From an uncultured Geobacter sp. (GTDB lineage Bacteria > Desulfobacterota > Desulfuromonadia > Geobacterales > Geobacteraceae): a DNA stretch of 64,000 nucleotides. Under the pieces are notes generated by a model. The model had not been told where the DNA came from, ran no database searches, and was given only the letters and a program-made list of their open reading frames with translations. The translations under genes and the position numbers were made by a program. How positions within the stretch are numbered: the first letter of the stretch is position 1; every line of letters begins with the position of its first letter. Below are positions 49,832-64,000 of the stretch, in pieces. The DNA is taken from the NCBI GenBank assembly GCA_903915655.1, contig CAIWTU010000039.1, positions 24,113 through 88,112 on the forward strand, given 5' to 3'.

Positions 49832-50452
49832 CTAAATAACTTCACTGCCACTAACAGGATTCAACTTTTCATTTTCTTTCGCTTCCAGTTCCAACTTACT
49901 TATTTCTTCCAGATAACGAAAGAGCGTGCGTCTGCCGACGCCGGATATCTTACAAACTTCAGCGGCTGTGTAGTCAGAATTATCATACAGAATCTTTGCC
50001 TGTTCCAGCTTTTTTTCATCAGTTCTGGGCCTGCCGCCCGTTCGTCCTCTTGCCTTGGCTGATTTTCTGCCTGCTTCTGCACGCTCGGACTTCAGCTCCC
50101 TCTCGAGCTGGTTGATGACGCCCATCATCAAAAAGAAAGCTCTCCCACTAGCGCTCGTAGTGTCTATGCTTTCCCGAAGGGATTTGATGTTGATTTTTTT
50201 AGCGGTGAACTCGTTGGATAATTGGAGTAGGTGCGTCAGCGAGCGAGTCATGCGACTAAGCTCTACCACAACGATAACATCACCAGGACGGACATATTGT
50301 ATCAACCTGTCCCAATCAGGTCTGGACTCGGTAATACCGCTGGTTTTGTCCGAAAATATCTTTTTACACCCTGCCGCCTTCAGCATATCAAGCTGACTAT
50401 CGAGGTTCTGGTCGCGACTGCTGACGCGGGCGTATCCGATTAATTCTGACAT
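49832..50452 (-). CDS. Serine recombinase (resolvase/invertase family)
   Basis: IGYARVSSRDQNLDSQ catalytic-Ser motif, and a C-terminal HTH (…AAEVCKISGVGRRTLFRYL). Confidence 0.92.
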   Translation of the reverse strand: MSELIGYARVSSRDQNLDSQLDMLKAAGCKKIFSDKTSGITESRPDWDRLIQYVRPGDVIVVVELSRMTRSLTHLLQLSNEFTAKKINIKSLRESIDTTSASGRAFFLMMGVINQLERELKSERAEAGRKSAKARGRTGGRPRTDEKKLEQAKILYDNSDYTAAEVCKISGVGRRTLFRYLEEISKLELEAKENEKLNPVSGSEVI

Positions 50453-50899: not shown

Positions 50900-51105
50900 T
50901 ATCGGTTAATAGGTAGCAACATGGGTACTATAGTGCCATAACTCAACTCAACTGTCAAGTTTATGCACTATGAATATGGCATAAGTTATGACATGACTTA
51001 TTGTGTAATAAACAGCCTGTAAAAGGTCGTAGGGTAGGGGTGTCAAAAGTGTACTTTTGGCACTGGCACAAATGTCCTTGTTTTAGTACGAAATGTTTTT
51101 TAATT

Positions 51106-51639
51106 TCAAACACCGCTCATAACTTCAAGTATATAATTAGTTTTCCGTTCTGAATAATTTTTGACTAAATCAACGACTACTTCTCTATCATTTAACTCGC
51201 CTTCGATATTGTATTTAATATGCATTTTGTAATCCTTATACTCTAGTGGGACATGATATAAAAACAAAGCCATCATTGTTTGGTTATCATAAGGTTGGCT
51301 TTGAGCAGATTGTGTATTTTTATCATTAAATATAATGTTATTATCTTTATACATAATTACCAATTCTTTAACATTTGCAGTAAAAACTGTTGGTGTTTTT
51401 TTGTCTATCCAAATATTAATTTTATATGGAGATGCAAATGCAATAACATTATTATTTGTGTGCTCAGTACTATCTATTCGTATAGTTATTGCTGTGTTAT
51501 CTTTATTTATGTTGATACTGTTATAGTCATATTTTTTTATTACAATGTTATACTTAATAACAACAATTGATATTATTAATAACAAAAATCCGATTATATA
51601 TTTAAGCATATTAGTGACTCCTGTCATATTTAATGGCAT
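51106..51639 (-). CDS. Hypothetical membrane-anchored protein (very AT-rich gene)
   Basis: N-terminal TM helix (YIIGFLLLIISIVVI). Asn/Ile/Lys-rich composition reflects the low GC. Confidence 0.45.
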   Translation of the reverse strand: MPLNMTGVTNMLKYIIGFLLLIISIVVIKYNIVIKKYDYNSININKDNTAITIRIDSTEHTNNNVIAFASPYKINIWIDKKTPTVFTANVKELVIMYKDNNIIFNDKNTQSAQSQPYDNQTMMALFLYHVPLEYKDYKMHIKYNIEGELNDREVVVDLVKNYSERKTNYILEVMSGV

Positions 51640-51743
51640 TGCCTTAACTCGGGGCGATTAAATATCTCATTTCAGTGTCTAACCGGCCAATTGCATCAGA
51701 TACCAACTGAATGGTCGAACCGTCGCCGAACGTCACACAGGGC

Positions 51744-52013
51744 TTAACCAAACCAAGAAAACCAAGAGAGAATTTTTTCCATTATTTTTTCTCCCACCAA
51801 AGCTCCAAGCAATCCACAACCGAGAAGAATAAAAAGGAGGAATATTTTTGAGCTCTCATAAAAAGCAGATGGCGATTCCTTGATATAGTAGGAAAATATG
51901 CCTAAAACACCTAAGATTATTCCTCCCCAAAAGCCTGTCATACTCCAACAAGACTTACAGTTTGTAGAGTTGCTTGCGTCTATATTGTGTTCATTTTTTA
52001 TCTGTTTGCCCAT
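51744..52013 (-). CDS. Hypothetical small 2-TM membrane protein
   Basis: 89 aa with two hydrophobic helices (FWGGIILGVLGIFSYY; IFLLFILLGCGLLGALVG). Confidence 0.45.
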   Translation of the reverse strand: MGKQIKNEHNIDASNSTNCKSCWSMTGFWGGIILGVLGIFSYYIKESPSAFYESSKIFLLFILLGCGLLGALVGEKIMEKILSWFSWFG

Positions 52014-52598
52014 AAATCACCCGATAAAGTTATATTGGACATAATTGTGCCTCCTGGCTATAAGGCAACGTTGGCTGTGGAGGGAGCATGCTATTCGGTG
52101 GACTAAAATCAACTGGGTTATTTCTGTTACGATAGTCGTTTTTTAGTTCATTATAAATTTCACTAGATGTTTGTTTTACAAAATCGAAAGTCGTTTGCAA
52201 TACAGGTTTTCCTGGGGATACGCGGACATCGAATAATTTACTTTTCGACCCTAGTTACATACTCCCCCAATACAACAGAAAAGACCCCAAGGGCAAGGGG
52301 TCTTTTCTGTTTCAGTCATATCATAACTAACCGTTTTTACTTAAATTATACCAACTGGTATTATTGAGTGTTGATTATAAAGAGCAAATTGAAGCAAGTC
52401 GCAAATATCGAAAAATTACGAAATATTTGTTAATAAGTATTTATGGCAAGTAAAAGAGCCGTTTCAGACTCAATTATGAGGGATGTAAAAAGTGTATTTT
52501 GCGCAAAAAAAAGACCTGGATAATCATCCAAGGCTTCTCACGTCATTTATATCTGACATTTCCTCTCCTATCTACAGGTATGCCAGCGTCGTTTCAAA

Positions 52599-53174
52599 CT
52601 ATTTCCGCATAGCAAACACTTCCCTGATATCAGTTTGTTTGATAAGACCACTCTCTATAACCAACATGTCATAAACTGTATTGACTTCAGTAAATCTCAG
52701 AAGAGACATATTGATGCTATTGCAAACATCAATTCGACACCATTTTGACGAATCATCAACCGTGACGTGCCGCCGGCAGACGAAAGGGCGTGACTTGTAG
52801 ATGGAACAAGAGCCTTTCTTCAGGAAAGGACAAGGGCTTCCGTAAGTATTCCCAGTAATTATTTCCTTCGCAGGCTTAATACCCTCAGTTTTTCTGATAT
52901 ATTCAACTTCCAGTTTAGATATGGATACTTCAATGTGGCAGCAATGTGTGCATCCTTTTTTGCATGGTGTGAATTTTTGTATGAATTCAAGGAGGTCGTC
53001 CATAAATTCATATAGAGATTTCAACTTGCTGAAGTAATTGCCGCTATGCTTCATAAACCTGGCCACAAGCTGCTCTTCTTGAGACTTTAAATGAGGAGGA
53101 AGCGTACGAGCTATTAGGTCGCTGTTTTTCTGAGCCCTTAATCGGGCTTGTTCCTTTTCATCTTGTTCAACCAT
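52599..53174 (-). CDS. YkgJ-family cysteine-cluster (CxxCxxCC / UPF0153-like) protein
   Basis: FTPCKKGCTHCCH… and …GSPCPFLKKGSCSIYKSRPFVCRRH are the two halves of the YkgJ Zn/Fe-binding motif. It lies 56 nt downstream of the E2-E1-JAB gene. Confidence 0.75.
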   Translation of the reverse strand: MVEQDEKEQARLRAQKNSDLIARTLPPHLKSQEEQLVARFMKHSGNYFSKLKSLYEFMDDLLEFIQKFTPCKKGCTHCCHIEVSISKLEVEYIRKTEGIKPAKEIITGNTYGSPCPFLKKGSCSIYKSRPFVCRRHVTVDDSSKWCRIDVCNSINMSLLRFTEVNTVYDMLVIESGLIKQTDIREVFAMRK

Positions 53175-53230
53175 ACCGTTACTCCTCCTTTCCTTGTATA
53201 AGACAGACTACTTGTCGTCAGCGTTTGAAA

Positions 53231-55474
53231 TCAATAATCACCGTAGTCGGCAAAGCATGTCAGCTCACGGTTATACCAAATCAGGTTGAATGCTGGGATG
53301 CCGAGCCGTAATTTCCTGATTTTCTGCAGCATCGCTTCATCAATCCCAGACGGTGCACTCCCGTACAGATGACTGTGCCACGTGCCGAGATATGTCAGCC
53401 CGGATGATTTCAGAATATTGGTGATTTTGTCCCTCAGTCCATCAATCCCCAGCACAAACAAACCACTTTTTCGAATGGAATCAGGTGGTGCTTCTAAAAT
53501 CCTGGTTACAATGGCGCACTTTCGCGCCAGACAGAGCCGTCCGATTAGTAACCCACCGGTTTCAACATCAGGCCACTTCCCGACTTCCTGTTCCATGGAA
53601 TCGAATGCAGAAGACAGCACTCTGAGCTCCCAGTCCCTATTCTGAAGATTCACGACGTGGGTTTTCCCGAGAAATGCCGTTTCCCATTTCAGAGACATTC
53701 CCATATCGGACATGCAACCGATTGATATCTCACCATCAACCTGGATATTACCCTCGTACGCCAGACGGGCGCGTTCGGCCATTGCTGCCGAATACATGGA
53801 TATTTTCGTATCCGGAATGACCATGGTATATGAGCCGCAACCCTGACCGGTTGAATGGCGCCGAAATCCATCGCCAGAACCCATTAGCACATTGGACACC
53901 GCTTTATTGTCGATTGTCGAATCGAACATAGCGGCATGCAAATCATCGACTCGGGGGTTTCGTCCTTTCCCTTCAATGGTAATAAAGCCGAGTTTCCCTT
54001 CCGAATATAGACCTGTCTGAAAAACTCGTGAGTTATTCTGTGCGGCAGGGAGTGACGCCAAAGTCTCTCGTACATTAATCGAAGCGGTGGAATCAATCAC
54101 CAGGCTATTCTTTTCGAACAGCCGGTTCTCATTCTTTGCGACAAAATCCTGCAATGACTTTGGATAAGGGGTGGCCTCGATATTAAAAACGTCGATTTCC
54201 TTTTTCAGCAATTCTGCCTTATTTCCAGAGGTCTTTGTGAGAGCATGTCGAGCAAGGTTGTGCTCGGACATGCTTCTGTTGTCTATCAACTTAAAAGGTC
54301 CATGCCCGGCTCTGCAAAGGTGCAGCGCTATTTTCGAGCCCAAGCTTCCGCACCCTACCTGTATAATCGATTCCATCTGGGCTGGCGATGAGCCTGACAA
54401 CCCCTGCAGCAATTCAGGCCCTACTGCATGGAGGTGACAAATGATATCAACCGGAGAATCCTTGTCAGCAAATCCTATTGTATCGAACTTCACCCGGACC
54501 CGGTAAGCAAGTAATTCAAGGTTGGTGTTCTGGTTTATTAATGGCAATGGCCTTCTTACACAATGCACCGTTATCACATCGACAATCCGTGATGTATCCC
54601 TTAGCCGGTTCCAGAGAGATTGAATCTCCTGCCAGAAAATTTTATATGTGCCGTATACCTTGCTCTTTTCCCGCAGCTCACCAAGATTTGTAACGGTCTC
54701 GGGGAAGTACTCGTTGACAACCATATCTTTGTCGGGCCAACAAAACAGCAGGGGTCTTGTGTTTAACGAATAATTATCCTTTTTATAATCTCGTTCAGTT
54801 ACATCGGAGATAAACCTGCCGTCCAGTTTTCGTGGGGTATAGTCGACAACGCTGCAACGTGAAATGTTATCAATTTCAAAACTTTCTACAGCTAGATACT
54901 TGCTGCCTGCAATGTCGGTTATTAATGACCGAAGCTTTGCATGCTGATAGACGATAAAGTTATCAAAAGTGTCGTAACGAATTGGTTCCCACCCTTGATT
55001 CGGGTTGATAAGACTGTTGCTTGCTGCCTTCATCAACCAATCCTGCACCTGGTAAAGTATTTCAGTCAATCCAAGCCCTCGATGCAGCAGGTCATCCAGA
55101 GAACCTTCATATATACAAGGCTTTACGAAATCATCTTCAGAACCTGGATTGATATGAGGCAGATTCCTTGGGAAATCCTTTCGTAAAAAAACCGTAGGCG
55201 CTTTCCGCGGGTAGTTTGCCGGGAACCTGAAATAGACAGGTTCGCAATCCTTAACGCCCGTCGAGCTGATGCCAGCCTTGATTGCCCTGTTTGGGAGTGA
55301 TACTGCAAAGCTGGTAACGATTATCCAGCCATTTCCGTTCTGTATCGGCTCATCGAAAATTTCTAAATCCGGAAATGTATCCATTTCCTTGAGCGCCAGA
55401 ACGATTGCCTTGGGAATCGGCAAGACATAAGCCTTATCTTTCTTCTTATCCTTACCCATGAGAGTGCGGTTCAC
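53231..55474 (-). CDS. E2-like / E1-like (ThiF) / JAB (JAMM) triple-fusion protein, Cap2+Cap3-like
   Basis: aa ~75-125: YFRFPANYP…PHINP…KPCIYEG (UBC-like HPN…C). aa 371-410: IQVGCGSLGSKIALHLCRAGHGPFKLIDN (E1 Rossmann GxGxxG). aa 636-712: VETGGLLIG…GTWHSHLYGSAPSGID (JAMM E…HxH…S..D). The listed start is GTG at 55474. An ATG at 55459 overlaps the MBL stop (ATGGGTAA). Confidence 0.8.
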   Translation of the reverse strand: MNRTLMGKDKKKDKAYVLPIPKAIVLALKEMDTFPDLEIFDEPIQNGNGWIIVTSFAVSLPNRAIKAGISSTGVKDCEPVYFRFPANYPRKAPTVFLRKDFPRNLPHINPGSEDDFVKPCIYEGSLDDLLHRGLGLTEILYQVQDWLMKAASNSLINPNQGWEPIRYDTFDNFIVYQHAKLRSLITDIAGSKYLAVESFEIDNISRCSVVDYTPRKLDGRFISDVTERDYKKDNYSLNTRPLLFCWPDKDMVVNEYFPETVTNLGELREKSKVYGTYKIFWQEIQSLWNRLRDTSRIVDVITVHCVRRPLPLINQNTNLELLAYRVRVKFDTIGFADKDSPVDIICHLHAVGPELLQGLSGSSPAQMESIIQVGCGSLGSKIALHLCRAGHGPFKLIDNRSMSEHNLARHALTKTSGNKAELLKKEIDVFNIEATPYPKSLQDFVAKNENRLFEKNSLVIDSTASINVRETLASLPAAQNNSRVFQTGLYSEGKLGFITIEGKGRNPRVDDLHAAMFDSTIDNKAVSNVLMGSGDGFRRHSTGQGCGSYTMVIPDTKISMYSAAMAERARLAYEGNIQVDGEISIGCMSDMGMSLKWETAFLGKTHVVNLQNRDWELRVLSSAFDSMEQEVGKWPDVETGGLLIGRLCLARKCAIVTRILEAPPDSIRKSGLFVLGIDGLRDKITNILKSSGLTYLGTWHSHLYGSAPSGIDEAMLQKIRKLRLGIPAFNLIWYNRELTCFADYGDY

Positions 55475-56615
55475 TTATTATGGCTATTCCCGCTCCCCCT
55501 GCCGACATCTTTTTCTTGCCCGGGGGTTGTATCCCATCGACAGCAATGGTGAATTCCATCGGTTCATGTGTCGTTTCGTTTGGATATTCTCCAGTACACC
55601 TGAAATTCTTTGATATTTTAAGATATTCCTGCTTCGCAGCATAGCAAGGAGGGTCGGTCTCATCATCTTTGATAGCTCTGCTGGTGGAGATAATAAAGGC
55701 ACCTTCATTTGCTTGTGAGAGCGCTGATATTGCATCCGCATCAACCTTAGGGTCGTCGCATTGACTCCTGCTATCGAACGACAGGACATGCCACGAACAG
55801 TGATGGGGGATTTGGAGCAAGTCGTATTTTAAGTTGTCGAGGTTGTACTGATACTTCGCCCACAATTTATTCCAGATGGCGACCTCGGCGTCACCACCCG
55901 TCAAAAAGAGGCAGGCATCCTGGTGAGAAGCGTCTGCGGCAATATGAAATTGGATAATTATACTCGAGTGGTTTTTTACCAGGGTCTTCTCGTCCTCTTC
56001 ATTTTGAAGCGAAAACGGCCCCAAGACTCTCATCCATGCAGCTGTTGAATGAGTGCCATTGATTGCATAAAAAATTTCCCCCTGCTTTTTCAAGATTCCT
56101 TCCAAGCCTTCGGACTTTTGGTCTTCGTCCTCTCCAATAATCAGAATCCTGTCACCGTCCGTGATACCTACTCCATAGTTGTCTTTATACTGTTTTACGC
56201 GCCGCTTGGCTTCTGTACTGAAAGCCTTCGCGTCTTCAGTAAGCGTGTGGTTTTTACTTGCTCGCCTGAAAACCATTGGAGATGACCATATCTCTCTGAC
56301 AAAAATCTTCTTTTCTTCCCCTTCAGGAGGCTCATCAACGTAATCATTGGGTTTCCCCAGATGAAAATGATTCTGCAGGCCTGTACAGTGGTCTTTATCA
56401 GGGTGGCTTAGAACAAAAACATCAACATATGGCCGGCCCTTATCATCGGTTTTAATCCGTTTTCTCAATTCTGAAGCGACATCACATGCATCATCTTCTG
56501 GATTGTCAGCTGCAGTGCGGATGTTCACGTCAATGAGAATGTTGGTGTCATCAATAAGGGTGATGAGGGTCATGTCGCCGTTTCCAACAGGGAAGAATGT
56601 TATCTTTGCGCTCAT
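55452..56615 (-). CDS. Metallo-beta-lactamase-fold protein (ComEC/Rec2-type MBL signature), C-terminus …EPHSHG
   Basis: ITFFPVGNGDMTLI and VFVLSHPDKDHCTG (HxDxDH-type motif), later IPHHCSWH. The gene's 3' end overlaps the E2-E1-JAB start. Confidence 0.8.
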   Translation of the reverse strand: MSAKITFFPVGNGDMTLITLIDDTNILIDVNIRTAADNPEDDACDVASELRKRIKTDDKGRPYVDVFVLSHPDKDHCTGLQNHFHLGKPNDYVDEPPEGEEKKIFVREIWSSPMVFRRASKNHTLTEDAKAFSTEAKRRVKQYKDNYGVGITDGDRILIIGEDEDQKSEGLEGILKKQGEIFYAINGTHSTAAWMRVLGPFSLQNEEDEKTLVKNHSSIIIQFHIAADASHQDACLFLTGGDAEVAIWNKLWAKYQYNLDNLKYDLLQIPHHCSWHVLSFDSRSQCDDPKVDADAISALSQANEGAFIISTSRAIKDDETDPPCYAAKQEYLKISKNFRCTGEYPNETTHEPMEFTIAVDGIQPPGKKKMSAGGAGIAIISEPHSHG

Positions 56616-56696
56616 ACGGTCTCCTTGTGCTGCTATGATATTGGCAATAAATCTGTTTCAATAAATTTGTTGAACCAGCTGGCAAAAAAAAGAAAA

Positions 56697-57284
56697 TTAT
56701 TTTATGCGATAATAAATAAATTCGATGCCGCCTGAGGGGGCCATCTCTTCACGCCTCATGATGTAACCGCTTTCCCATAGCTGCTTGAGCTTGGTACTAG
56801 CGTTGGTGAGTTTCAAATCCAGTGCCGATGCTGCCGTTGAAGCTGTAGTCTCAGCAACTGTCAGGATATAATGGAGCAGGTCTGTGTTCCCTTTAGTTGG
56901 GCTCTGTCCTAACAATTTCCATGAGTCATCTTGCCATGAGAATAGCGGTTGTTCCTTCTTGTCGGCCGCCACATCGAGGTTCTCTATCAAGTCGTCATCA
57001 TCCAGGTCGACAATGGCGATTGCGTGCCTGGTGCGGAATCGGCTGGCTATCTCGACAACGCTCTCTCTTGAAAAGGATGCGTCAGTACGTTGTATCCCGG
57101 CAAACGATACCTTGAAAATATCAATTTCAGGATGTCTTTGGATAAAGTTTTCAAGAAGTTTGCCTACCTCTTTGCCTTGGGCATTTCCCCAACCGTCCGG
57201 GCTTTTCGTGAGGTCGACCAATTTGACAACACCGCGAGTCTGATTCATGCTTTTTATTGAACCAGAATTTTCCATATTTGTCAA
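56697..57284 (-). CDS. STAS-like (DUF4325-type) domain protein with C-terminal winged-helix HTH
   Basis: N-terminal …VVKLVDLT…GKEVGKLLENFIQRHPEIDIFKVSFAGIQRTDASFSRESVVEI… resembles DUF4325/STAS-like. C-terminal …LLHYILTVAETTASTAASALDLKLTNASTKLKQLWESGYIMRRE… is MarR-like wHTH. ATGA overlap with the upstream GHKL gene. Confidence 0.6.
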   Translation of the reverse strand: MTNMENSGSIKSMNQTRGVVKLVDLTKSPDGWGNAQGKEVGKLLENFIQRHPEIDIFKVSFAGIQRTDASFSRESVVEIASRFRTRHAIAIVDLDDDDLIENLDVAADKKEQPLFSWQDDSWKLLGQSPTKGNTDLLHYILTVAETTASTAASALDLKLTNASTKLKQLWESGYIMRREEMAPSGGIEFIYYRIK

Positions 57285-58156
57285 TACTTAAAATCAAAGG
57301 TGATATGTGTGCCCTTTACCGGCAGGAGTTCAAGGAAGCAATAGGCGGTGTCATGAGTATATACGTCATCGGCGGGGACAAGGTTTACGCGGGTATCTGC
57401 AAGTCGGACATGAAGCTTGCCATGGAACTGTTTCGCCTTCCTGGCACATGTCGTCAATCCACAGCCGTGACCACTTTTTTTCCGGTGTCTTGTAAGACCC
57501 TTCTCAAATGCGTCAATCACTATTTCGATATCTGTCGCATCCTTGTATTTCTTTGGTAGTTTGGGTCGAAGGGTTCCAAGTAGGCCTTTCCCGCTATCGG
57601 ACACAATAACCATAATTCCATTCTTGTATGTCTGCAGTGCCGCAAATGCGTCCAATTTTGTGGAGCTGTGCCTAATCACATTGTCAATCAGCTCGCCAAA
57701 AATTGTGAAGGACGCCTTGCCGAGCTTCTTGTCCTTGGTTTCAAGGGCATCAGCAAGGCGGCCGGGAAGTTCCGCGTCATCTTCATCGATGCGGACAATT
57801 TCCACCAGCCCCTTATTGGATTTTTTGTACAGCTGAGCGCCGGAAAATAAAGGTTTGGCAGGGAGTATTGTGACGTGGGGGGCAATGTGGTCAAAAAATC
57901 CCATTCTGTTGAAATAACCCATTACTTCAGAGTCTTCATTCTGGAAATCGATGGTTACTAATTTCCCCTCTGCTGAAAGTTGGTTGATGAGGCTTAAAAA
58001 TATTACGGCGGCATCGATAAGGATTTTTGAGCCTGGCAGAATTTCAAAACAAACTGACTCTTTCCCCTGAATTGCCTCTTTAGCTTTCCAGAGAATACCC
58101 TCAAGCTTGTCACCACCAATCCATACGTCTTCCGGGAAAGAGATTCTCGGCATCAT
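57281..58156 (-). CDS. GHKL (SpoIIAB/RsbW-like) ATPase/kinase with N-terminal STAS-like region
   Basis: N-box FGELIDNVIRHS, G1 VSDSGKGL, G2 SGHGCGL. The N-terminal 130 aa (…ILIDAAVIFLSLINQLSAEGKLVTIDF…MGYFNRMGFFDHI) look like an anti-sigma-antagonist-type fold. Confidence 0.72.
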   Translation of the reverse strand: MMPRISFPEDVWIGGDKLEGILWKAKEAIQGKESVCFEILPGSKILIDAAVIFLSLINQLSAEGKLVTIDFQNEDSEVMGYFNRMGFFDHIAPHVTILPAKPLFSGAQLYKKSNKGLVEIVRIDEDDAELPGRLADALETKDKKLGKASFTIFGELIDNVIRHSSTKLDAFAALQTYKNGIMVIVSDSGKGLLGTLRPKLPKKYKDATDIEIVIDAFEKGLTRHRKKSGHGCGLTTCARKAKQFHGKLHVRLADTRVNLVPADDVYTHDTAYCFLELLPVKGTHITFDFKY

Positions 58157-58487: not shown

Positions 58488-58525
58488 CTTCCGTAAAATT
58501 GAAACATCTAAAAAGGTACGGTTTT

Positions 58526-58804
58526 ATGGCACATGAAATAGTTGTAATAGGCTTGGGCACAAACGAGAAAGCCAGCAGCATTCTCAAAGCCGAATTGACC
58601 AAACGCGGCATTTCCTACACAAAACTGGCGGAGCTTTTAAACCAGCGTGGGTGGAAGCTGAACAAGCCGGCGGTCGACAACAGAATGAGCCGCAGCGGCT
58701 TCTCTGCTGACTTCTTCCTTGATTGCTTGCGGGTAATTGGCTGCGAAAATATTGGTGTACTAGTAGACAAACCTGTGAAGGACCTTGTGAAGAACTCCGA
58801 TTAA
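58526..58804 (+). CDS. Small HTH protein (DUF6471-like)
   Basis: …LKAELTKRGISYTKLAELLNQRGWKLNKPAVDNRMSRSGFSADFFLDCLRVIGC… resembles the DUF6471 pattern as I recall it. The ORF track starts at a TTG at 58499. Confidence 0.5.
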   Translation: MAHEIVVIGLGTNEKASSILKAELTKRGISYTKLAELLNQRGWKLNKPAVDNRMSRSGFSADFFLDCLRVIGCENIGVLVDKPVKDLVKNSD

Positions 58805-58834
58805 CCCAATTTTATTTAATTCTATGGAGAGACT

Positions 58835-61800
58835 ATGAAAACCGTACGCGACGCCTGTGTGCTTCAAGACAATGCCCTGGACATCCATGTAAGCGACCAG
58901 ATTGAACAACTTGACGAACTCATCGCCAACGAAAAGGACGGGCGTCTTTTCTTCGAGAAAACCCATATCACCGAAGGCATGAAGACCCTCATGATTGAGG
59001 GTATCGCCCGCCTTGCCGGGAAATCGAATCAGGCTATCTTCCATCTCAAACAGGCCATGGGCGGCGGTAAAACTCACTTGCTGGTCGGCTTCGGGCTGTA
59101 TGCCAAGCATGCCGTACTGCGAGACGAATACTGCTCCGATATTCCTCACATAAAAGCTTTCGCCGGCGCCAAGGTTGCCGCCTTCAATGGCAGGAACAGC
59201 CCGGCCCATTTCGTCTGGGGCGAGATAGCCGCCCAATTGGGGAAAGCAGAGCAGTTCAAGAAATTCTGGGAAAGCGGCCCCAAGGCTCCCGACGAGCAGG
59301 ATTGGGTATCCCTCTTCGATGGTGACACCCCAATCCTCATCCTGCTCGACGAGATGCCACCATATTTCCACTATCTCGACACCCAGCAGGTTGGGAACGG
59401 CACCGTTGCCGATATCGCCACCCGCGCCTTCGCCAATATGCTGACCGCCGCCAGCAAAAAGGCCAATGTTTGCGTCGTGATTTCCGACCTGACCGCTTCG
59501 TACGATACCGGCACGAAGTTAATTCATAAGGCGCTGGAAGATGCCCGCCAGGAGGTTGGCCGCCAGGAGAGGAACATCACTCCGGTCGACCTCGCCGGTA
59601 ACGAGATTTACGACATCCTTCGCAAGCGGATGTTCAAGAAGCTCCCCGACCGTGCGGTAATCGAAGATATCGCTGCCTCATTCGGCCGGGCCTTGGAGGA
59701 AGCGAGCAAGGCAAAAGTCGTGAATCGTGGCGCTGAAGCCATTGCCGATGAAATCGTCAACACCTATCCTTTCCATCCCCGCCTGAAAAACCTGGTTGCC
59801 CTTTTTAAGGAAAATGAAAAGTTCAAACAGACTCGCGGTCTCATGGAAATCGTGTCACGCCTGATGAGGTCGGTCTGGGAGCGCCAGGATAATGATGTCT
59901 ACCTGATAGGCCCGCAGCACTTTGATTTCTCCATTTCCGATGTCAGGGAAAAGATTTCCGAGATTTCCGAGATGCGGGATGCAATAGCCAAAGACCTCTG
60001 GGACGCGAACATGTCGTCTCATGCCCAAATCATTGACCTGAACACCGGCAATGATGCCGCGTCACGTGTTGGCGCTCTTCTCTTGACTTCCAGCCTTTCC
60101 ACCGCCGTGAACGCCGTCAAAGGCCTCACCAAGGAAGAACTGCTCGAATGCCTGGTTACTCCCATCAGCGGGGCAACCGAATTTGCCACGGCATTCGATT
60201 CGTTCCATGGCGTTGCCTGGTATGTCCACCACACCCCTGAGGGCAAGTATTACTTCGACCGCCAGGAAAATCTTACCAAGCTCCTGCAGAGCATTGCCGA
60301 GGATGCCCCGGACAACAAGATTGATGAGCTTATCAGCGACCGTTTGAAGGAAAAGTTTGCCCCAACCAGAAAAACCGCCTACGACGAAGTACTGCCGTTG
60401 CCGAAGATTAGCGAGGTTGCTGACAAGGTAAGAAAAAATCGCGTACTCTTGATAGTCAGCCCTGATTCAAAGGTACCACCTGAAGAGGTCCAGCGGCTCT
60501 TTGACAGCCTCATGCAGAAAAACAACCTCTGCATCCTTACCGGCGACAAGACCCAAATGGGCAGCGTAGAAAAGGCCGCCCGGCAGGTTTTCGCCGCCCT
60601 GAAGGCAGATAAGAGGATTCCGAAAGGCCATCCCCAGCGGGAAGAGCTTGACATGAAACAGCAGCAGTACGAGCAGGATTTCACCGCAACGGTGCTGAAC
60701 CTTTTTGACAAAGTAATTTTCCCAATTCACCGTCCTGGAAAGACCGCACAGCTTGTTTCCAAGCCGCTAGATATGACCTACGACCAAAAAAAAGGATTCA
60801 GCGGCGAAGAGCAAATAGAAAAGACCCTCACCAAAGACCCGATAAAGCTGTACCTCGACATAGAACAAAACTTTGACGGTATCAGAGACAAGGCGGAAGA
60901 ACTGCTGTGGCCGGCCAACCAGGATGACTCTAGGTGGAGCGACATTCAGGACAGGATTACAGAACAGGCCGGCATGCCATGGCTGCCGCCCAAAGGCCTT
61001 GACCAGCTAAAAGCTCTCGCTTGCAATCGCGGTCTTTGGGAAGACCTTGGCAATGGCTACATCACGAAAAAACCGCAGAAGAAAAAGACTTCCGTTCAAT
61101 ATACCAATGAGACACAACGCGACGATGAAGGGTACATCAGGATTCGTATCAATCCCCTGAATGCCGGCCCATCGCCCCGTATCTATTATGCCGAGGATGG
61201 CCCGGTCTCCGAAGCAAGCCAGTTGCTTGCCGAACAGACCCTGACCACCAAGGCCATTCGTGTCCAGTTCCTGGCCGTCGACCCCTCGAATCAGTTTGAG
61301 ACCGGCCCCGCAGTTACCTGGGATGCAAAGCCAGTTATCAGGAACAACCTTCTGGATGTCGAGCCGAAACGGAAAGTGGAGCTGTTCGTTGCACCAAAGG
61401 GCGCACTCAAATATTCCATGGACGGCAGTGAACCGCGTAACGGCATCGACTATACCGGAGCCATCGAGATTTCCGATGGCGATGTCCACCTGATGGTATT
61501 TGCCGAAGCCGATGGTCTTGAAGCCAAGGAAGAGTTCAGATTCGCCGCAAAGGGGCAAAAAGGTCTCCGTATTAAGGAAACCGAGCCCGCCCGCCTCATA
61601 AGCCCGCGTGGCGGCAAGCGTTTGGATTCCCGCATCAAGGCCTTCGCCGGGCTGAAAGAAGCCAAAGAGAAGAGCGTCAACTTCGAGCGGGTCACTCTCC
61701 AGATTGGCCAAGGTAGCCAGGCTGTCACGGTCATGTTTGGAGACATCCAGGTAGACGCAGAGTATATCGAGTCGGTTCTTGAAACCGTCCTGACCAAATT

Positions 61801-61921
61801 TGATGCCACTACCCCTATCACGCTGACCTTCGCCAAGGCCAATTTCCACTCCGGCCATGACCTGAAACAGTTTGCGGATAGCTTGGGTATCGACATCAAA
61901 CAAGAGGAAGTTGAGCAGTAA
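58835..61921 (+). CDS. DUF499-type large P-loop ATPase
   Basis: 1028 aa. Walker A HLKQAMGGGKTHLL, Walker B ILILLDEMPPY. Size and gene context (DUF3780-like plus DUF1156 methylase downstream) fit the DUF499 module. Confidence 0.72.
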   Translation: MKTVRDACVLQDNALDIHVSDQIEQLDELIANEKDGRLFFEKTHITEGMKTLMIEGIARLAGKSNQAIFHLKQAMGGGKTHLLVGFGLYAKHAVLRDEYCSDIPHIKAFAGAKVAAFNGRNSPAHFVWGEIAAQLGKAEQFKKFWESGPKAPDEQDWVSLFDGDTPILILLDEMPPYFHYLDTQQVGNGTVADIATRAFANMLTAASKKANVCVVISDLTASYDTGTKLIHKALEDARQEVGRQERNITPVDLAGNEIYDILRKRMFKKLPDRAVIEDIAASFGRALEEASKAKVVNRGAEAIADEIVNTYPFHPRLKNLVALFKENEKFKQTRGLMEIVSRLMRSVWERQDNDVYLIGPQHFDFSISDVREKISEISEMRDAIAKDLWDANMSSHAQIIDLNTGNDAASRVGALLLTSSLSTAVNAVKGLTKEELLECLVTPISGATEFATAFDSFHGVAWYVHHTPEGKYYFDRQENLTKLLQSIAEDAPDNKIDELISDRLKEKFAPTRKTAYDEVLPLPKISEVADKVRKNRVLLIVSPDSKVPPEEVQRLFDSLMQKNNLCILTGDKTQMGSVEKAARQVFAALKADKRIPKGHPQREELDMKQQQYEQDFTATVLNLFDKVIFPIHRPGKTAQLVSKPLDMTYDQKKGFSGEEQIEKTLTKDPIKLYLDIEQNFDGIRDKAEELLWPANQDDSRWSDIQDRITEQAGMPWLPPKGLDQLKALACNRGLWEDLGNGYITKKPQKKKTSVQYTNETQRDDEGYIRIRINPLNAGPSPRIYYAEDGPVSEASQLLAEQTLTTKAIRVQFLAVDPSNQFETGPAVTWDAKPVIRNNLLDVEPKRKVELFVAPKGALKYSMDGSEPRNGIDYTGAIEISDGDVHLMVFAEADGLEAKEEFRFAAKGQKGLRIKETEPARLISPRGGKRLDSRIKAFAGLKEAKEKSVNFERVTLQIGQGSQAVTVMFGDIQVDAEYIESVLETVLTKFDATTPITLTFAKANFHSGHDLKQFADSLGIDIKQEEVEQ

Positions 61922-62496
61922 TGGATAAGTACCTTTTCACAGATTTTGGCGCTCCGGATGAATACGGTGCCCATATATTTAAGGTTGAAATACCTGCCTC
62001 ACGGAGTGATGCAGTCCGGATTATCGAGGACTTTGGGCTAAAGGGTGGCGACAGCGGTCTGCCTTATGAAGAGGTAAGGGTGGTTCTCCCCCGTAAAGCC
62101 TGGTCTGCCATCGCGGAAACCGCCCGGAAAAATTTCAACGAACGCCTGAAAACCAAGAAACTCCTGACTGGGCGCTGGCGAGTTGGGACAGGCAAAGAGG
62201 CCACCAAGGTTGACCGGCTACTGGGGAAAGAGCTTTGCATTTTGGCTTGGGCGGTTGAAAACGCCGACGAAGATAAATACCCGGTCGTATGCAGCAAGTG
62301 GGTCTCGTTGCGCCCTGAAGAACGCTGGTGGCTGTTTTCCATGACTGCCGCGGAAGCCGGACTTGCGGAAGATGGCGACCGTGGCTGGCGGAAAGCCCTG
62401 CTCTATGCCCTGTCGGATGGCAAAGCCGGAGAGAAGACGGTAAAGCGCCGTCGCCCGGTTGTTGATGAAGATAACCTATCGTTGTTTGGAGTTTGA
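61921..62496 (+). CDS. DUF3780-like protein
   Basis: 191 aa. The start overlaps the DUF499 stop (TAATG). Assignment rests mainly on size and position between the DUF499 and DUF1156 genes. Confidence 0.5.
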   Translation: MDKYLFTDFGAPDEYGAHIFKVEIPASRSDAVRIIEDFGLKGGDSGLPYEEVRVVLPRKAWSAIAETARKNFNERLKTKKLLTGRWRVGTGKEATKVDRLLGKELCILAWAVENADEDKYPVVCSKWVSLRPEERWWLFSMTAAEAGLAEDGDRGWRKALLYALSDGKAGEKTVKRRRPVVDEDNLSLFGV

Positions 62497-64000
62497 TGAT
62501 GACTGATAAGAAGCAAATTGTCCCTTTTTCTTTAAGAGATGCTCCGGCGCTGATTGAAACAATTTTCCCATCGCAAAAGGTTTCTGTAGAAGCTTATAAA
62601 GAGCAAATGGCAGGAAGTGGCAAAACATTAACTCCCCTTGGAAGTTTTTGGAAAGGTAGAAAACCTCTAATTCTCAATAAAGCATGTATATTAGGTTGTC
62701 TATTACCTACAACATCAAACTTAAAGAGAGATTTGGAAATTTATGAAAAATTAATGGGCATGGATGATGAATCTTTTGTTGTTCGTTTTTCCAAGCGTCC
62801 ACGAATTCAAGAAATATTATCAAAAGTAAAAATCGATAATATATACGATTACTTTAAAATCCCTCCTGGATTTGCCCTCCCAATATCTTCCCCATTCAAT
62901 ATCTCAGACTATGAAAATATGGATATAAGTTGGCGGGAAGATATTACTGAACTAGAGCGAAGAAAAATTGAAGCTAAAGCACTTCCTTCACTGTCATATA
63001 AAGAAAAGGTAAGTAATTCAAAGAGACCTGAAGAGGTAATCAGTATAATTCATAATCATATTTGGCAGGATGTTAACCAACATCTAGGTACTAACGCCTA
63101 TTCTTTCCCAGAACTAGTTGAACAATTAGGGGTAATGCGTTTTGGGCATCGTCCCAGAGTTGGAGATACATTCGCTGGGTCTGGTCAAATTCCATTTGAA
63201 GCTGCAAGACTTGGATGTGATGTTTATGCTTCTGACTTGAATCCAATAGCATGCATGCTTAATTGGGGAAGTTTTAACATTATTGGTTGTTCCAATGAAA
63301 AGAGAGTCTTGTTAGAAAATAAACAAAAGATTCTTATACACAAGATACAATCTGAAATAGAAAATCTCGGCGTTGAAGTAAATAATGAAGGGCTAGTGGC
63401 AAAAGTATTTTTATATTGTTTTGAAGCAACATGTCCACAAACTGGATGGAAAGTTCCTCTTTTACCTAGTCTTGTTATAAGTAAACCAAGGACCGGCAAA
63501 TTGATAAATGTTATTGCTAAATTAGTTCCTGATAATATCAATAAAAGATATGACATTGTAATTGTTAACGGCGTTTCAAATGATGAACTTATGTCAGCTG
63601 AAAAAAATGGAACTATACGCTCTGAAACACGTGGACAAGATACATATATGGTTCATTCTGTTAATGGGGTTGAGTATCGCACAAAGATTTCAACTTTACG
63701 CGGAGATTACCGCAACACAAATGGTAGCACAGAAAACAAGTTACGACTTTGGGGGAAATCTGATTTTATACCCAAACAAGATGATATTTTCCAAGAACGT
63801 CTTTATTGCATCCAATGGAATCGCCCAAAAAAATCCGGCAAGGGTGATGACTTTGAATTTAGGGCTGTAACTCCAGATGATGTAATACGTGAACAAATCG
63901 TTAAGGATTACATTGCTGAACATATAATTGACTGGCAATCCAAAGGATGGATTCCAGATATGCGTATTGAGGTGGGAGGTCCACCCCGTTATCAAGGTCT
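62496..64000 (+). CDS. DUF1156-domain DNA methyltransferase, 3'-partial (not in the ORF track because no stop lies within the window)
   Basis: I translated frame 3 from ATGATG at 62496 to the window end without a stop. N-terminus MMTDKKQIVPFSLRDAPALIETIFPSQKVSVEAYKE… is DUF1156-like. …VGDTFAGSGQIPFEAARLGCDVYASDLNP… is SAM-binding motif I. Confidence 0.75.
   Translation, partial: MMTDKKQIVPFSLRDAPALIETIFPSQKVSVEAYKEQMAGSGKTLTPLGSFWKGRKPLILNKACILGCLLPTTSNLKRDLEIYEKLMGMDDESFVVRFSKRPRIQEILSKVKIDNIYDYFKIPPGFALPISSPFNISDYENMDISWREDITELERRKIEAKALPSLSYKEKVSNSKRPEEVISIIHNHIWQDVNQHLGTNAYSFPELVEQLGVMRFGHRPRVGDTFAGSGQIPFEAARLGCDVYASDLNPIACMLNWGSFNIIGCSNEKRVLLENKQKILIHKIQSEIENLGVEVNNEGLVAKVFLYCFEATCPQTGWKVPLLPSLVISKPRTGKLINVIAKLVPDNINKRYDIVIVNGVSNDELMSAEKNGTIRSETRGQDTYMVHSVNGVEYRTKISTLRGDYRNTNGSTENKLRLWGKSDFIPKQDDIFQERLYCIQWNRPKKSGKGDDFEFRAVTPDDVIREQIVKDYIAEHIIDWQSKGWIPDMRIEVGGPPRYQG

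Follow-up and report, generated by a model that had tools for sequence, protein, structure and literature searches.

A 6A-MBL gene pair preceded by capK and capS in an uncultured Geobacter sp.: a probable anti-phage operon under a DNA-damage switch

The occurrence of ubiquitin-like conjugation enzymes in a bacterial operon with neither a gene for a ubiquitin-like protein (Ubl) nor a cyclase raises two questions: what these enzymes conjugate, and whether the genes packed around them belong to the same machinery. Such an operon lies in a 64,000-nt stretch of DNA from an uncultured Geobacter sp. (contig CAIWTU010000039.1), which is referred to here as the window. A preliminary description, made from the sequence, had recognised in it genes for a GHKL kinase, a STAS-wHTH protein, a metallo-beta-lactamase-fold (MBL) protein, an E2-E1-JAB fusion and a YkgJ-family CxxCxxCC protein, and had read these five genes as a functional unit of which it knew no functional description. 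Our analyses support another reading, in which the locus is very probably a 6A-MBL anti-phage operon placed under the DNA-damage switch formed by CapK and CapS.

All five co-oriented minus-strand open reading frames (ORFs) were found where the preliminary description had placed them (Table 1). Its spacers of 81 nt between capS and the MBL gene and of 56 nt between the fusion and the CxxCxxCC gene are correct, as is the overlap of 8-23 nt between the MBL and fusion genes, whose extent depends on whether the fusion begins at the ATG at 55459 or at the GTG at 55474, relative to the MBL stop codon at 55452-55454. The ATG is the likely start; in the database record the protein begins at Met6 and has 742 aa. 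The capK/capS junction had been given as ATGA, but the letters read TTGA, that is, a TTG start at 57284 over the TGA at 57281-57283; 4 nt are shared between these ORFs, and capS has alternative in-frame ATG starts at 57275 and at 57248. The low-GC island noted earlier is also present (GC 0.32-0.48 at about 49-59 kb, below the flanks), and the proposed defence-island setting is borne out by the resolvase and the DUF499/DUF3780/DUF1156 module that flank the operon. The only good terminator-like sequence lies 3' of the CxxCxxCC gene.

Table 1. Features of the locus, in positions of the window
Feature	Position	Strand	Length	Remarks
capK	57281..58156	-	291 aa	
capS	56697..57284	-	195 aa	
Candidate CapS operator	56653..56678	.	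26 nt	Palindrome in the capS-MBL spacer; minus-strand reading CTGGTTCAA-N8-TTGAAACAG
MBL gene	55452..56615	-	387 aa	
MBL predicted disordered tail	55455..55514	-		aa 368-387, ends His-Gly; pLDDT about 30
E2-E1-JAB fusion gene	53231..55474	-	747 aa	
E2 part of the fusion	54950..55321	-		
E1 part of the fusion	53957..54367	-		
JAB part of the fusion	53312..53653	-		
YkgJ-family CxxCxxCC gene	52599..53174	-	191 aa	
Terminator-like hairpin	52515..52532	-		7-pair stem, then TCTTTTTTTT (T8 tail), 3' of the CxxCxxCC gene; consensus match only

Together, the MBL and E2-E1-JAB fusion genes make up the 6A-MBL anti-phage system. The MBL protein scored 416.7 bits against the NCBIfam model NF058524 (6A-MBL_enzyme, cut-off 220) and the fusion 528 bits against NF058523 (cut-off 320), two equivalog models which name 6A-MBL as anti-phage. 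An MBL gene adjoining an E2-E1-JAB gene constitutes operon type 6a of Iyer/Burroughs/Aravind 2006 (PMC1779556), a survey to which the preliminary description had rightly pointed. Its remark that it knew of no functional description does not stand, since the pair is a named anti-phage system with equivalog models of its own; the papers that cite the anti-phage report give it as van den Berg et al. (2024, Cell Host Microbe 32:1427), and passages of PMC13276650, PMC11601596 and bioRxiv 2025.09.30.679545 cite 6A-MBL as anti-phage. The MBL gene was located directly upstream of the fusion in 79/80 of the genomes scanned, which belong to many phyla, and across loci the stop and start codons of the two genes often overlap. 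The window's core pair falls into a distinct 6A-MBL clade, with 61-79% identity inside it and about 30-41% to all others. Among the viral contigs scanned, a full-length 6A-MBL fusion was found just once.

The three activities first proposed for the fusion were recovered by Pfam in a single chain, in the order E2, E1, JAB: Prok-E2_A (1e-29, residues 52-175), ThiF (2.7e-12, residues 370-506) and Prok-JAB (1.6e-5, residues 628-718), the last also matched in PADLOC (JAB, 1e-16). Invariant residues among 28 fusion homologs are H107, C120, G374/G376/G379, C546, E638, H700, H702, S709 and D712, which include the C120, the GxGxxG motif and the H700/H702 pair that had been singled out as catalytic candidates. 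The closest solved relatives are the Cap2 structures 7TSQ/7TO3/7TSX (about 1e-13), and the analogy previously drawn with Cap2/Cap3 of type II CBASS holds.

The MBL protein has no match in Pfam, and nothing was retrieved for it from the PDB by sequence search. Its AF2 model (pLDDT 85) found its best fold match in the ComEC beta-lactamase-like domain 9ic4 (E 5.6e-12), in agreement with the ComEC-type fold originally suggested, although this is a moderate match, with a TM of 0.48 for the query and of 0.67 for the target. Residues H71/D73/D75/H76, D242 and H271/H272/H276 are invariant, and this putative ComEC-like hydrolase is probably a nuclease. In its C-terminal tail (Table 1), G387 is invariant and H386 is conserved in at least 90% of cases; the stop codon directly follows HG in 37/55 distinct genome-locus tails, the others carrying one or two residues after it. 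The persistence of this HG end, with or without one or two further residues, on a disordered tail across phyla suggests that the MBL protein is the conjugated substrate and the JAB domain a possible trimmer, and the MBL is accordingly presumed to be both effector and E1 substrate. Cyclases of type II CBASS have the same kind of tail, which is adenylated by Cap2, and the Corbett lab has grouped 'Type II CBASS/Pycsar/MBL' as pathways conjugating their own enzyme.

Neither a cyclase nor a Ubl was matched among the five proteins in Pfam, PADLOC or NCBIfam, and the two spacers (81 and 56 nt) are too short to leave room for a small Ubl ORF, in keeping with both absences reported for the locus from the outset. 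A Ubl hidden at the C-terminus of the MBL protein was considered and rejected, the model showing a disordered tail only, without a beta-grasp domain.

Alternatively, the MBL protein might be an independent effector, and what the fusion charges might be a small molecule or another protein, of the host or of a phage. No demonstration of MBL conjugation was found in the 6A-MBL literature, where the 2024 report is represented by the papers citing it, and the targets of Cap2-type enzymes are unknown. This explanation is nevertheless rather unlikely in view of the HG end kept on the disordered MBL tail across phyla, of the strict adjacency of the MBL and fusion genes, with stop and start often overlapping, and of a neighbourhood that holds no other conserved candidate substrate.

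The kinase and STAS-wHTH protein encoded upstream are CapK and CapS, characterised respectively as an ssDNA-activated kinase and a repressor that CapK phosphorylates (Chambers et al., EMBO J 2026, PMC13373217). These two additions had been thought new; the same study already lists MBL operons downstream of capKS (7/443). The assignment of the former as a GHKL kinase was confirmed by Pfam (HATPase_c, 1.9e-8), and 26 homologs show no variation in its N-box (ELIDNVxxHS), G1 (DSGxG) and G2 (GxGCGL) motifs. Over residues 10-289 it is 32.6% identical (E 2e-29) to WP_001567866.1, the gene of which lies directly upstream of that for the published E. roggenkampii CapS, WP_001567865.1. The C-terminal half of its AF2 model (pLDDT 86) resembles GHKL folds; the fold search returned weak GHKL matches, none at E<=0.001, and the sequence search of the PDB returned nothing. 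An N-terminal HTH is absent, the alignment of the longest possible ORF (291 aa) to E. roggenkampii CapK (368 aa) beginning near residue 66 of the latter. Deletion of the HTH from CapK gave no phenotype (PMC13373217), and most sampled CapK homologs are as short as the window's or shorter.

The assignment of the second protein as STAS-wHTH was likewise upheld, in this case by full-length matches to crystal structures of CapS, namely 9Z71 (E 3.7e-28) and, at E 1.3e-27, 9Z72/9Z73. Its predicted phospho-acceptor is Ser70 (codon 57075-57077) within 'TDASF'; the alignment pairs this with 'TDSSF' in the E. roggenkampii protein and with 'TDAAF', the site of S58A, in V. cholerae CapS. Neither of these two proteins nor the CxxCxxCC protein was matched in PADLOC, whose 2023 library predates CapKS, and their matches in NCBIfam were below threshold or missing.

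The palindrome in the spacer between capS and the MBL gene is an inverted repeat with 88% complementarity, the arms of which are kept in the capS-downstream spacers of loci L085, L087 (a perfect 9+8+9), L092 and L089, the last preceding a Bub operon. Its half-sites are TTCAA/TTGAA with an 8-nt spacer and the published sites are TTAA-N10-TTAA; CapS may bind here. The published 'narrow palindrome' between capK and capS has no counterpart at this locus because the two genes overlap. Two other motifs were set aside. The motif 'ATTTATTGCC', present in the capS-MBL spacer and in the region upstream of capK, is not claimed as an operator (8 matches in the window against 6.4 expected). For the half-site 'TTGAAAC', 25 copies stand against 11.6 expected, an enrichment that extends over the entire window, so that its copies upstream of capK prove nothing.

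Essentially all loci whose contig permits it have a capS homolog after the capK homolog, and capKS is also found upstream of CBASS I/II/III, Thoeris-like (ThsB-like) and Bub operons, in accord with the survey in PMC13373217; it is a portable, interchangeable regulatory cassette. Within the 6A-MBL clade of the window, CapKS is the regulator in the window, L085, L087 and L092, an HTH + M78 peptidase pair in L004 and L172, and BrxR/WYL in L002, while L173 has no recognisable regulator gene. It could be proposed that the five genes constitute one new integrated system, with the kinase, the STAS-wHTH and the YkgJ proteins as targets or sensors in the conjugation chemistry or signalling, as the tight packing and common orientation of the genes would suggest, together with the order capK-capS-MBL-fusion seen again in several metagenome contigs. 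However, the same capKS pair stands before the unrelated cassettes listed above, close 6A-MBL relatives have other types of regulator or none, and the three extra genes are present in 0/80 genomic 6A-MBL loci, none of them occurring there singly either. The YkgJ gene was found in no related locus, and the role demonstrated for CapKS is transcriptional. The five genes are thus not co-conserved as a set, contrary to the functional unit first envisaged, and they correspond to systems already characterised, two outcomes that the preliminary description had named as refuting its reading; such a system appears extremely improbable.

The fifth gene was correctly assigned to the YkgJ family (CxxCxxCC, PF03692, 1.5e-8 in Pfam). 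It is preceded, after its spacer, by a strong AAGGAGGAG ribosome-binding site (RBS), and it is probably co-transcribed with the operon. The gene was found in 0/80 genome loci and 0/85 capKS loci (about 170 related loci), its sole match being a fragment on the same-strain contig L001. A second contig encodes an identical fusion protein, again followed by the CxxCxxCC gene; coming from essentially the same strain, it does not count as independent evidence. Relatives with 31-35% identity are present on 1,561 plasmids; their surroundings there are unrelated and uninformative, with no 6A-MBL nearby, and the viral contigs scanned contained no relatives.

The slot directly after the fusion is filled in most loci, the type of gene varying. 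Its occupants in other 6A-MBL loci include a patatin, a membrane protein and a second MBL; in the closest relatives a ~152-aa membrane protein is conserved at this place, against the CxxCxxCC gene here. No remnant of that protein was found within the window and, given its absence, the window copy may be incomplete.

Conceivably, the CxxCxxCC protein is a genuine third component (effector, metal/redox sensor or adaptor) in this variable slot, functional and co-transcribed, which has replaced the membrane protein to give a previously unseen three-gene 6A-MBL variant. In favour of this, it has the 56-nt spacer and strong RBS before it and the only good terminator-like sequence after it, it occupies a place where a gene is common and its type changes with the locus, and it follows the identical fusion on the second contig. 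Against this, it does not co-occur with the system elsewhere, its relatives on more than 1,500 plasmids lack 6A-MBL nearby, PADLOC and the viral contigs yielded no matches, and the second contig is not independent. We regard a third component as doubtful, and the gene would rather be a passenger, specific to its lineage, in a third slot whose content varies. Should the idea extend to 6A-MBL at large, the real effector or adaptor would be the product of whichever gene fills this slot (membrane protein, second MBL, patatin, CxxCxxCC), and the two-gene 6A-MBL definition of NCBIfam would lack it.

A mechanism for a 6A-MBL operon under CapK/CapS can be proposed, in which the catalytic residues and the lack of Ubl and cyclase are observed at this locus and every step is otherwise inferred. 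At rest, as in E. roggenkampii, a CapS dimer would occupy the palindrome and keep the MBL gene, the fusion and probably the CxxCxxCC gene repressed. Phage infection or DNA damage would generate ssDNA and thereby activate CapK, which would phosphorylate Ser70 within CapS's STAS domain, so that the dimer would dissociate and the operon be de-repressed; ssDNA-activated phosphorylation with de-repression has been shown for the E. roggenkampii proteins only (PMC13373217). By analogy with Cap2 of type II CBASS, E1 would then adenylate the C-terminal Gly387 on the MBL's own flexible tail, which would pass to E1 Cys546, then to E2 Cys120, and finally be ligated to some target. Conjugation may prime, localise or activate the MBL hydrolase, whose putative nuclease activity would block phage replication. 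The JAB domain would reverse conjugation and, in relatives with an MBL ending in HG plus one or two residues, probably also trims these to expose the glycine.

Instead of being dedicated to defence against phages, the same circuitry could serve as a response to DNA damage or stress in general, or as a weapon with which mobile elements compete: CapKS answers DNA damage generally, the locus is inside a resolvase-bounded island, and the authors of PMC13373217 say that Bub and YegP operons under capKS may be stress pathways. With 6A-MBL counted, in passages of the literature citing it, among the known jumbo-phage defence systems of P. aeruginosa, named as anti-phage by NCBIfam, and surrounded by defence modules (DUF499/DUF3780 here, BREX in L087), we consider this very unlikely and retain the anti-phage reading.

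The locus is a fresh example of described systems, not new machinery, and its weight as a discovery is low because both modules and their combination have already been published. Its value is as a clean example of defence operons assembled from parts, with one 6A-MBL clade behind three types of regulator (CapK/CapS, HTH + M78 peptidase, BrxR/WYL), and one CapK/CapS clade that drives a Bub operon in one genome and 6A-MBL in others. Furthermore, the HG tail and the variable gene after the fusion could guide experiments on 6A-MBL.

Compared with other 6A-MBL loci, this locus shares an MBL gene directly upstream of a single E2-E1-JAB chain, both above the NCBIfam cut-offs, with all catalytic residues present and neither cyclase nor Ubl; it differs in being preceded by capKS, in belonging to a separate clade and in having the CxxCxxCC gene where its closest relatives have the ~152-aa membrane protein. 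With the studied CapK/CapS pairs it has in common a kinase that joins GHKL and STAS-like domains, right after it a STAS-wHTH protein that keeps the conserved serine, a position upstream of an immune operon and beside a methyltransferase-containing module, and a palindrome in the downstream spacer, whereas its CapK lacks the ~56-residue N-terminal HTH and shows about 33% identity to the characterised proteins.

The E1, E2 and JAB domains are homologous to those of type II CBASS, with Cap2 as the closest PDB matches, and by analogy the substrate would again be a tail that belongs to the enzyme itself, predicted to be disordered and conserved at its end, not a Ubl, with JAB as a putative reversing peptidase. 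In contrast to type II CBASS, the operon has no CD-NTase, no cyclic-nucleotide signal and no effector of the SAVED or another nucleotide-sensing type, a single chain combines Cap2 and Cap3, and the conjugated enzyme would be an MBL hydrolase; the locus is thus a relative of type II CBASS, not a member of it, because no cyclase or SAVED match exists in the five proteins. Bil and Bub systems encode a beta-grasp Ubl, an E1 and an E2 as distinct proteins, unlike this operon with its lack of a Ubl gene; they too place E1/E2/JAB-type chemistry in defence islands, and Bub operons are often preceded by capKS, as in L089, whose CapK is 62% identical to that of the window.

On the minus strand, five co-oriented open reading frames were found at the coordinates first assigned to them, and the operon observed in the preliminary description was thereby confirmed. 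Its spacers and overlaps were likewise as described, with the exception of the first junction, which reads TTGA and not ATGA, the TTG start of capS overlapping the stop codon of capK. An additional small gene would not fit into the 81-nt and 56-nt spacers. All the original domain assignments were upheld, with profile matches to Prok-E2_A (1e-29), ThiF (2.7e-12) and Prok-JAB (1.6e-5) in the E2-E1-JAB fusion protein, HATPase_c (1.9e-8) in the kinase and CxxCxxCC (1.5e-8) in the 191-aa protein, while cyclase, SAVED and Ubl models matched none of the five proteins. Residues invariant across 28 aligned fusion homologs are His107 and Cys120 of E2, the GxGxxG motif and Cys546 of E1, and E638, H700, H702, S709 and D712 of JAMM.

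Features of the operon and its surroundings (window positions)
Feature	Position	Strand	Remark
Serine recombinase	49832-50452	-	Resolvase + HTH_7
AT-rich stretch	51000-52100		GC 0.32
Small ORF	51106-51639		177 aa
Small ORF	51744-52013		89 aa
Five-gene operon	52599-58156	-
CxxCxxCC gene		-	191 aa
E2-E1-JAB fusion gene	53231-55474	-	747 aa
MBL gene	55452-56615	-	387 aa
Palindrome in capS-MBL spacer	56653-56678		26 nt
capS, alternative in-frame ATG starts	57248, 57275	-	capS product 195 aa
capK/capS junction	57281-57284	-	start TTG at 57284, stop TGA at 57281-57283
capK		-	291 aa
DUF6471 / DUF499 / DUF3780 / DUF1156 module	58499-64000	+	divergent to capK
DUF1156 methyltransferase-like gene	start near 62547	+	runs past window end

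The metallo-beta-lactamase (MBL) and fusion genes constitute the already known 6A-MBL system. Searched against the NCBIfam release of June 2026, the MBL protein scored 416.7 bits (cut-off 220) and the fusion protein 528.3 bits (cut-off 320) on equivalog models named "anti-phage 6A-MBL system", a name derived from Iyer, Burroughs and Aravind 2006 (PMC1779556), where the operon type is row 6a of Table 1. A 2026 review and the Corbett lab credit its anti-phage activity to van den Berg et al. 2024, and a 2025 preprint, crediting the same work, lists 6A-MBL among the "known jumbo phage defense systems" of P. aeruginosa. From a scan of one genome per species with the fusion-protein profile, we retained 80 loci spread over many phyla. 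In 79 the fusion gene is immediately preceded by the MBL gene, the sole exception being a contig without sequence upstream of the fusion, and all 80 lack homologs of the kinase, of the 195-aa protein and of the CxxCxxCC protein. Within this set, tblastn matches to the window's 6A-MBL proteins are near-identical (same coordinates, identical or nearly identical E-values) in L055-L070, loci of many genera including Comamonas, Xenophilus, Azospirillum, Bordetella, Stenotrophomonas, Achromobacter and Hydrogenophaga, which points to a recently spread mobile element.

The C-terminus of the MBL protein has features that would fit a conjugation substrate. A conserved "(P)HG" motif occurs in all 55 distinct MBL C-termini across the phyla sampled (L005-L084); 37 of them stop at HG, and about a third continue for one or two residues (AS, AA, SS, SA, TR, KK or G), these longer tails resembling Ubl precursors awaiting trimming. 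Gly387 and the metal ligands H71, D73, D75, H76, D242, H271, H272 and H276 are invariant across 31 aligned homologs, and His386 is at least 90% conserved. AlphaFold2 modelled residues 1-367 with confidence (mean pLDDT 85, pTM 0.88) and predicts residues 368-387 to be disordered; the model contains no beta-grasp domain, and its best structural match is the ComEC beta-lactamase-like nuclease domain (9ic4, E 5.6e-12), in support of the original "ComEC-type" call. Type II CBASS cyclases likewise have a conserved terminal glycine on a predicted disordered tail, which is adenylated by Cap2 using E1 Cys548 and E2 Cys109 (Ledvina et al.). In the fusion protein the counterparts of these cysteines are C546 and C120; its nearest solved relatives are Cap2 structures (~1e-13), and the Corbett lab puts "Type II CBASS/Pycsar/MBL" together as pathways conjugating their own enzyme. 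By analogy, we infer that the MBL protein may act as its own "ubiquitin"; the JAB domain would undo the conjugation and, where one or two residues come after HG, probably trim the tail as well.

The kinase and the 195-aa protein correspond to CapK (HTH-STAS-GHKL) and CapS (STAS-wHTH), named by Chambers et al. (EMBO J 2026, PMC13373217). In that study CapS is a dimeric repressor and CapK is activated by ssDNA; CapK phosphorylates a conserved STAS serine, the dimer dissociates and the downstream operon is de-repressed. The 195-aa protein matches CapS crystal structures over its full length (9Z71, E 3.7e-28; 9Z72/9Z73, E 1.3e-27), its Ser70 aligning with the residue changed by S58A in V. cholerae CapS. 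The kinase matches WP_001567866.1 of an E. roggenkampii IncHI2A plasmid (E 2e-29), a gene directly followed by WP_001567865.1, the accession given for the studied CapS (PMC13373217), and then by a Bub operon. Since the alignment begins at about residue 66 of the 368-aa plasmid protein, the window CapK, unlike the studied one, is without the N-terminal HTH, a domain found dispensable (PMC13373217). Its AF2 model is confident (pLDDT 86) and the C-terminal half matches GHKL domains; the fold search with this model returned no match at E<=0.001.

Kinase homologs numbered 272, and in 80 metagenome loci retrieved with the kinase profile the kinase gene is directly followed by a 195-aa-protein homolog in all cases where the contig permits it. 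The cassettes downstream of the pair vary: MBL and E2-E1-JAB genes in 18 loci, some with an extra patatin; patatin, CD-NTase, Cap2 and Cap3 (type II CBASS); SMODS cyclase and HNH-SAVED (type I CBASS); TRIP13, HORMA, cyclase and NucC (type III CBASS); a ThsB-like TIR protein; or, in Geomonas, a Bub operon (Multi_ubiq, Prok-E2_E, ThiF, BubE).

As a candidate CapS operator, we identified from the sequence a palindrome in the capS-MBL spacer, CTGGTTCAA-N8-TTGAAACAG on the minus strand, whose arms are kept in the equivalent spacers of four relatives. The spacer palindrome of L087, a related capKS-linked 6A-MBL locus, is perfect (9+8+9), and that of L089 stands ahead of a Bub operon. The logic is that of the published "wide palindrome", although the half-sites differ from TTAA-N10-TTAA; the published "narrow" site between capK and capS is absent from the window, as the two genes overlap. 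Two more shared motifs were rejected as operators, one being not above chance and the other enriched window-wide. The heptamer TTGAAAC occurs 25 times in the whole window against 11.6 expected, a count reached by none of the shuffles, and eight copies fall at 52.5-58.6 kb.

In the 6A-MBL clade to which the window belongs (61-79% identity), the regulator cassette is interchangeable. Upstream of the MBL gene lie CapK/CapS in the window, L085, L087 and L092; a pair of HTH (MqsA-like) and Peptidase_M78 genes, CapH/CapP-like by Pfam only, in L004 and L172; a BrxR/WYL protein in L002; and no recognisable regulator gene in L173.

The CxxCxxCC gene is probably co-transcribed with the operon, being preceded by a strong RBS and followed by the single good terminator. 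It is not conserved with the operon, however: no homolog occurs in any related locus, whether 6A-MBL genome locus or capKS locus, and its relatives (31-35% identity) were found on 1,561 plasmids (1,317 conjugative), away from any 6A-MBL. Directly after the fusion gene, the window's closest relatives, L002, L085, L087, L092, L172 and L173, instead encode a highly conserved multi-pass membrane protein of ~152 aa with the motif EHPTNLAFYALAFIAGLNVDKF, which has no Pfam, PHROG or NCBIfam match and of which the window contains no remnant; the NCBIfam library holds models for two 6A-MBL genes only. More widely, this position holds one of several protein types. In other 6A-MBL clades (L032-L084 and L009-L031) it is taken in 33 loci by a second MBL-fold protein of ~356 aa and in 20 by a membrane protein of 210-236 aa, and a patatin follows the fusion in five capKS-linked loci and L046. 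The third position is thus a variable slot with effector-like fillers. The window and a 2.8-kb metagenome contig of essentially the same strain (L001:2290-2838) encode identical fusion proteins; the contig matches the window only as far as codon 34 or so of the CxxCxxCC gene and continues as unrelated high-GC sequence, a switch due to either a chimeric assembly or an alternative junction.

Beyond capK lies the DUF6471-DUF1156 module, whose DUF499 protein scores 1588 bits on PADLOC model PDLC02192; L085 has the same layout, and about 20% of capKS pairs adjoin an R-M system (PMC13373217). On the other side, the serine recombinase shares 72% identity with a recombinase that flanks the L085 6A-MBL operon on that side, and no nucleotide similarity exists between the two islands. 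The arrangement suggests a mobile defence island that is bounded by the resolvase and varies in its cargo. The two membrane-protein-like ORFs of the AT-rich stretch matched no NCBIfam or PHROGs family.

The features peculiar to this locus are modest: a CapK without HTH, a different candidate operator sequence and, in the variable third position, a lineage-specific CxxCxxCC gene. The preliminary description had taken the five genes as a possibly new system, and two of the outcomes that it had itself named as speaking against that reading were found, a match to characterised systems and a lack of joint conservation of the five genes. The locus maps onto two described systems, 6A-MBL and CapK/CapS, and their combination is already on record, the supplementary table of Chambers et al. 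(PMC13373217) including seven MBL operons with capKS, from Bradyrhizobium (three strains), Rhodoplanes, a Rhizobiaceae bacterium, Sphingomonas and a Euryarchaeota MAG.
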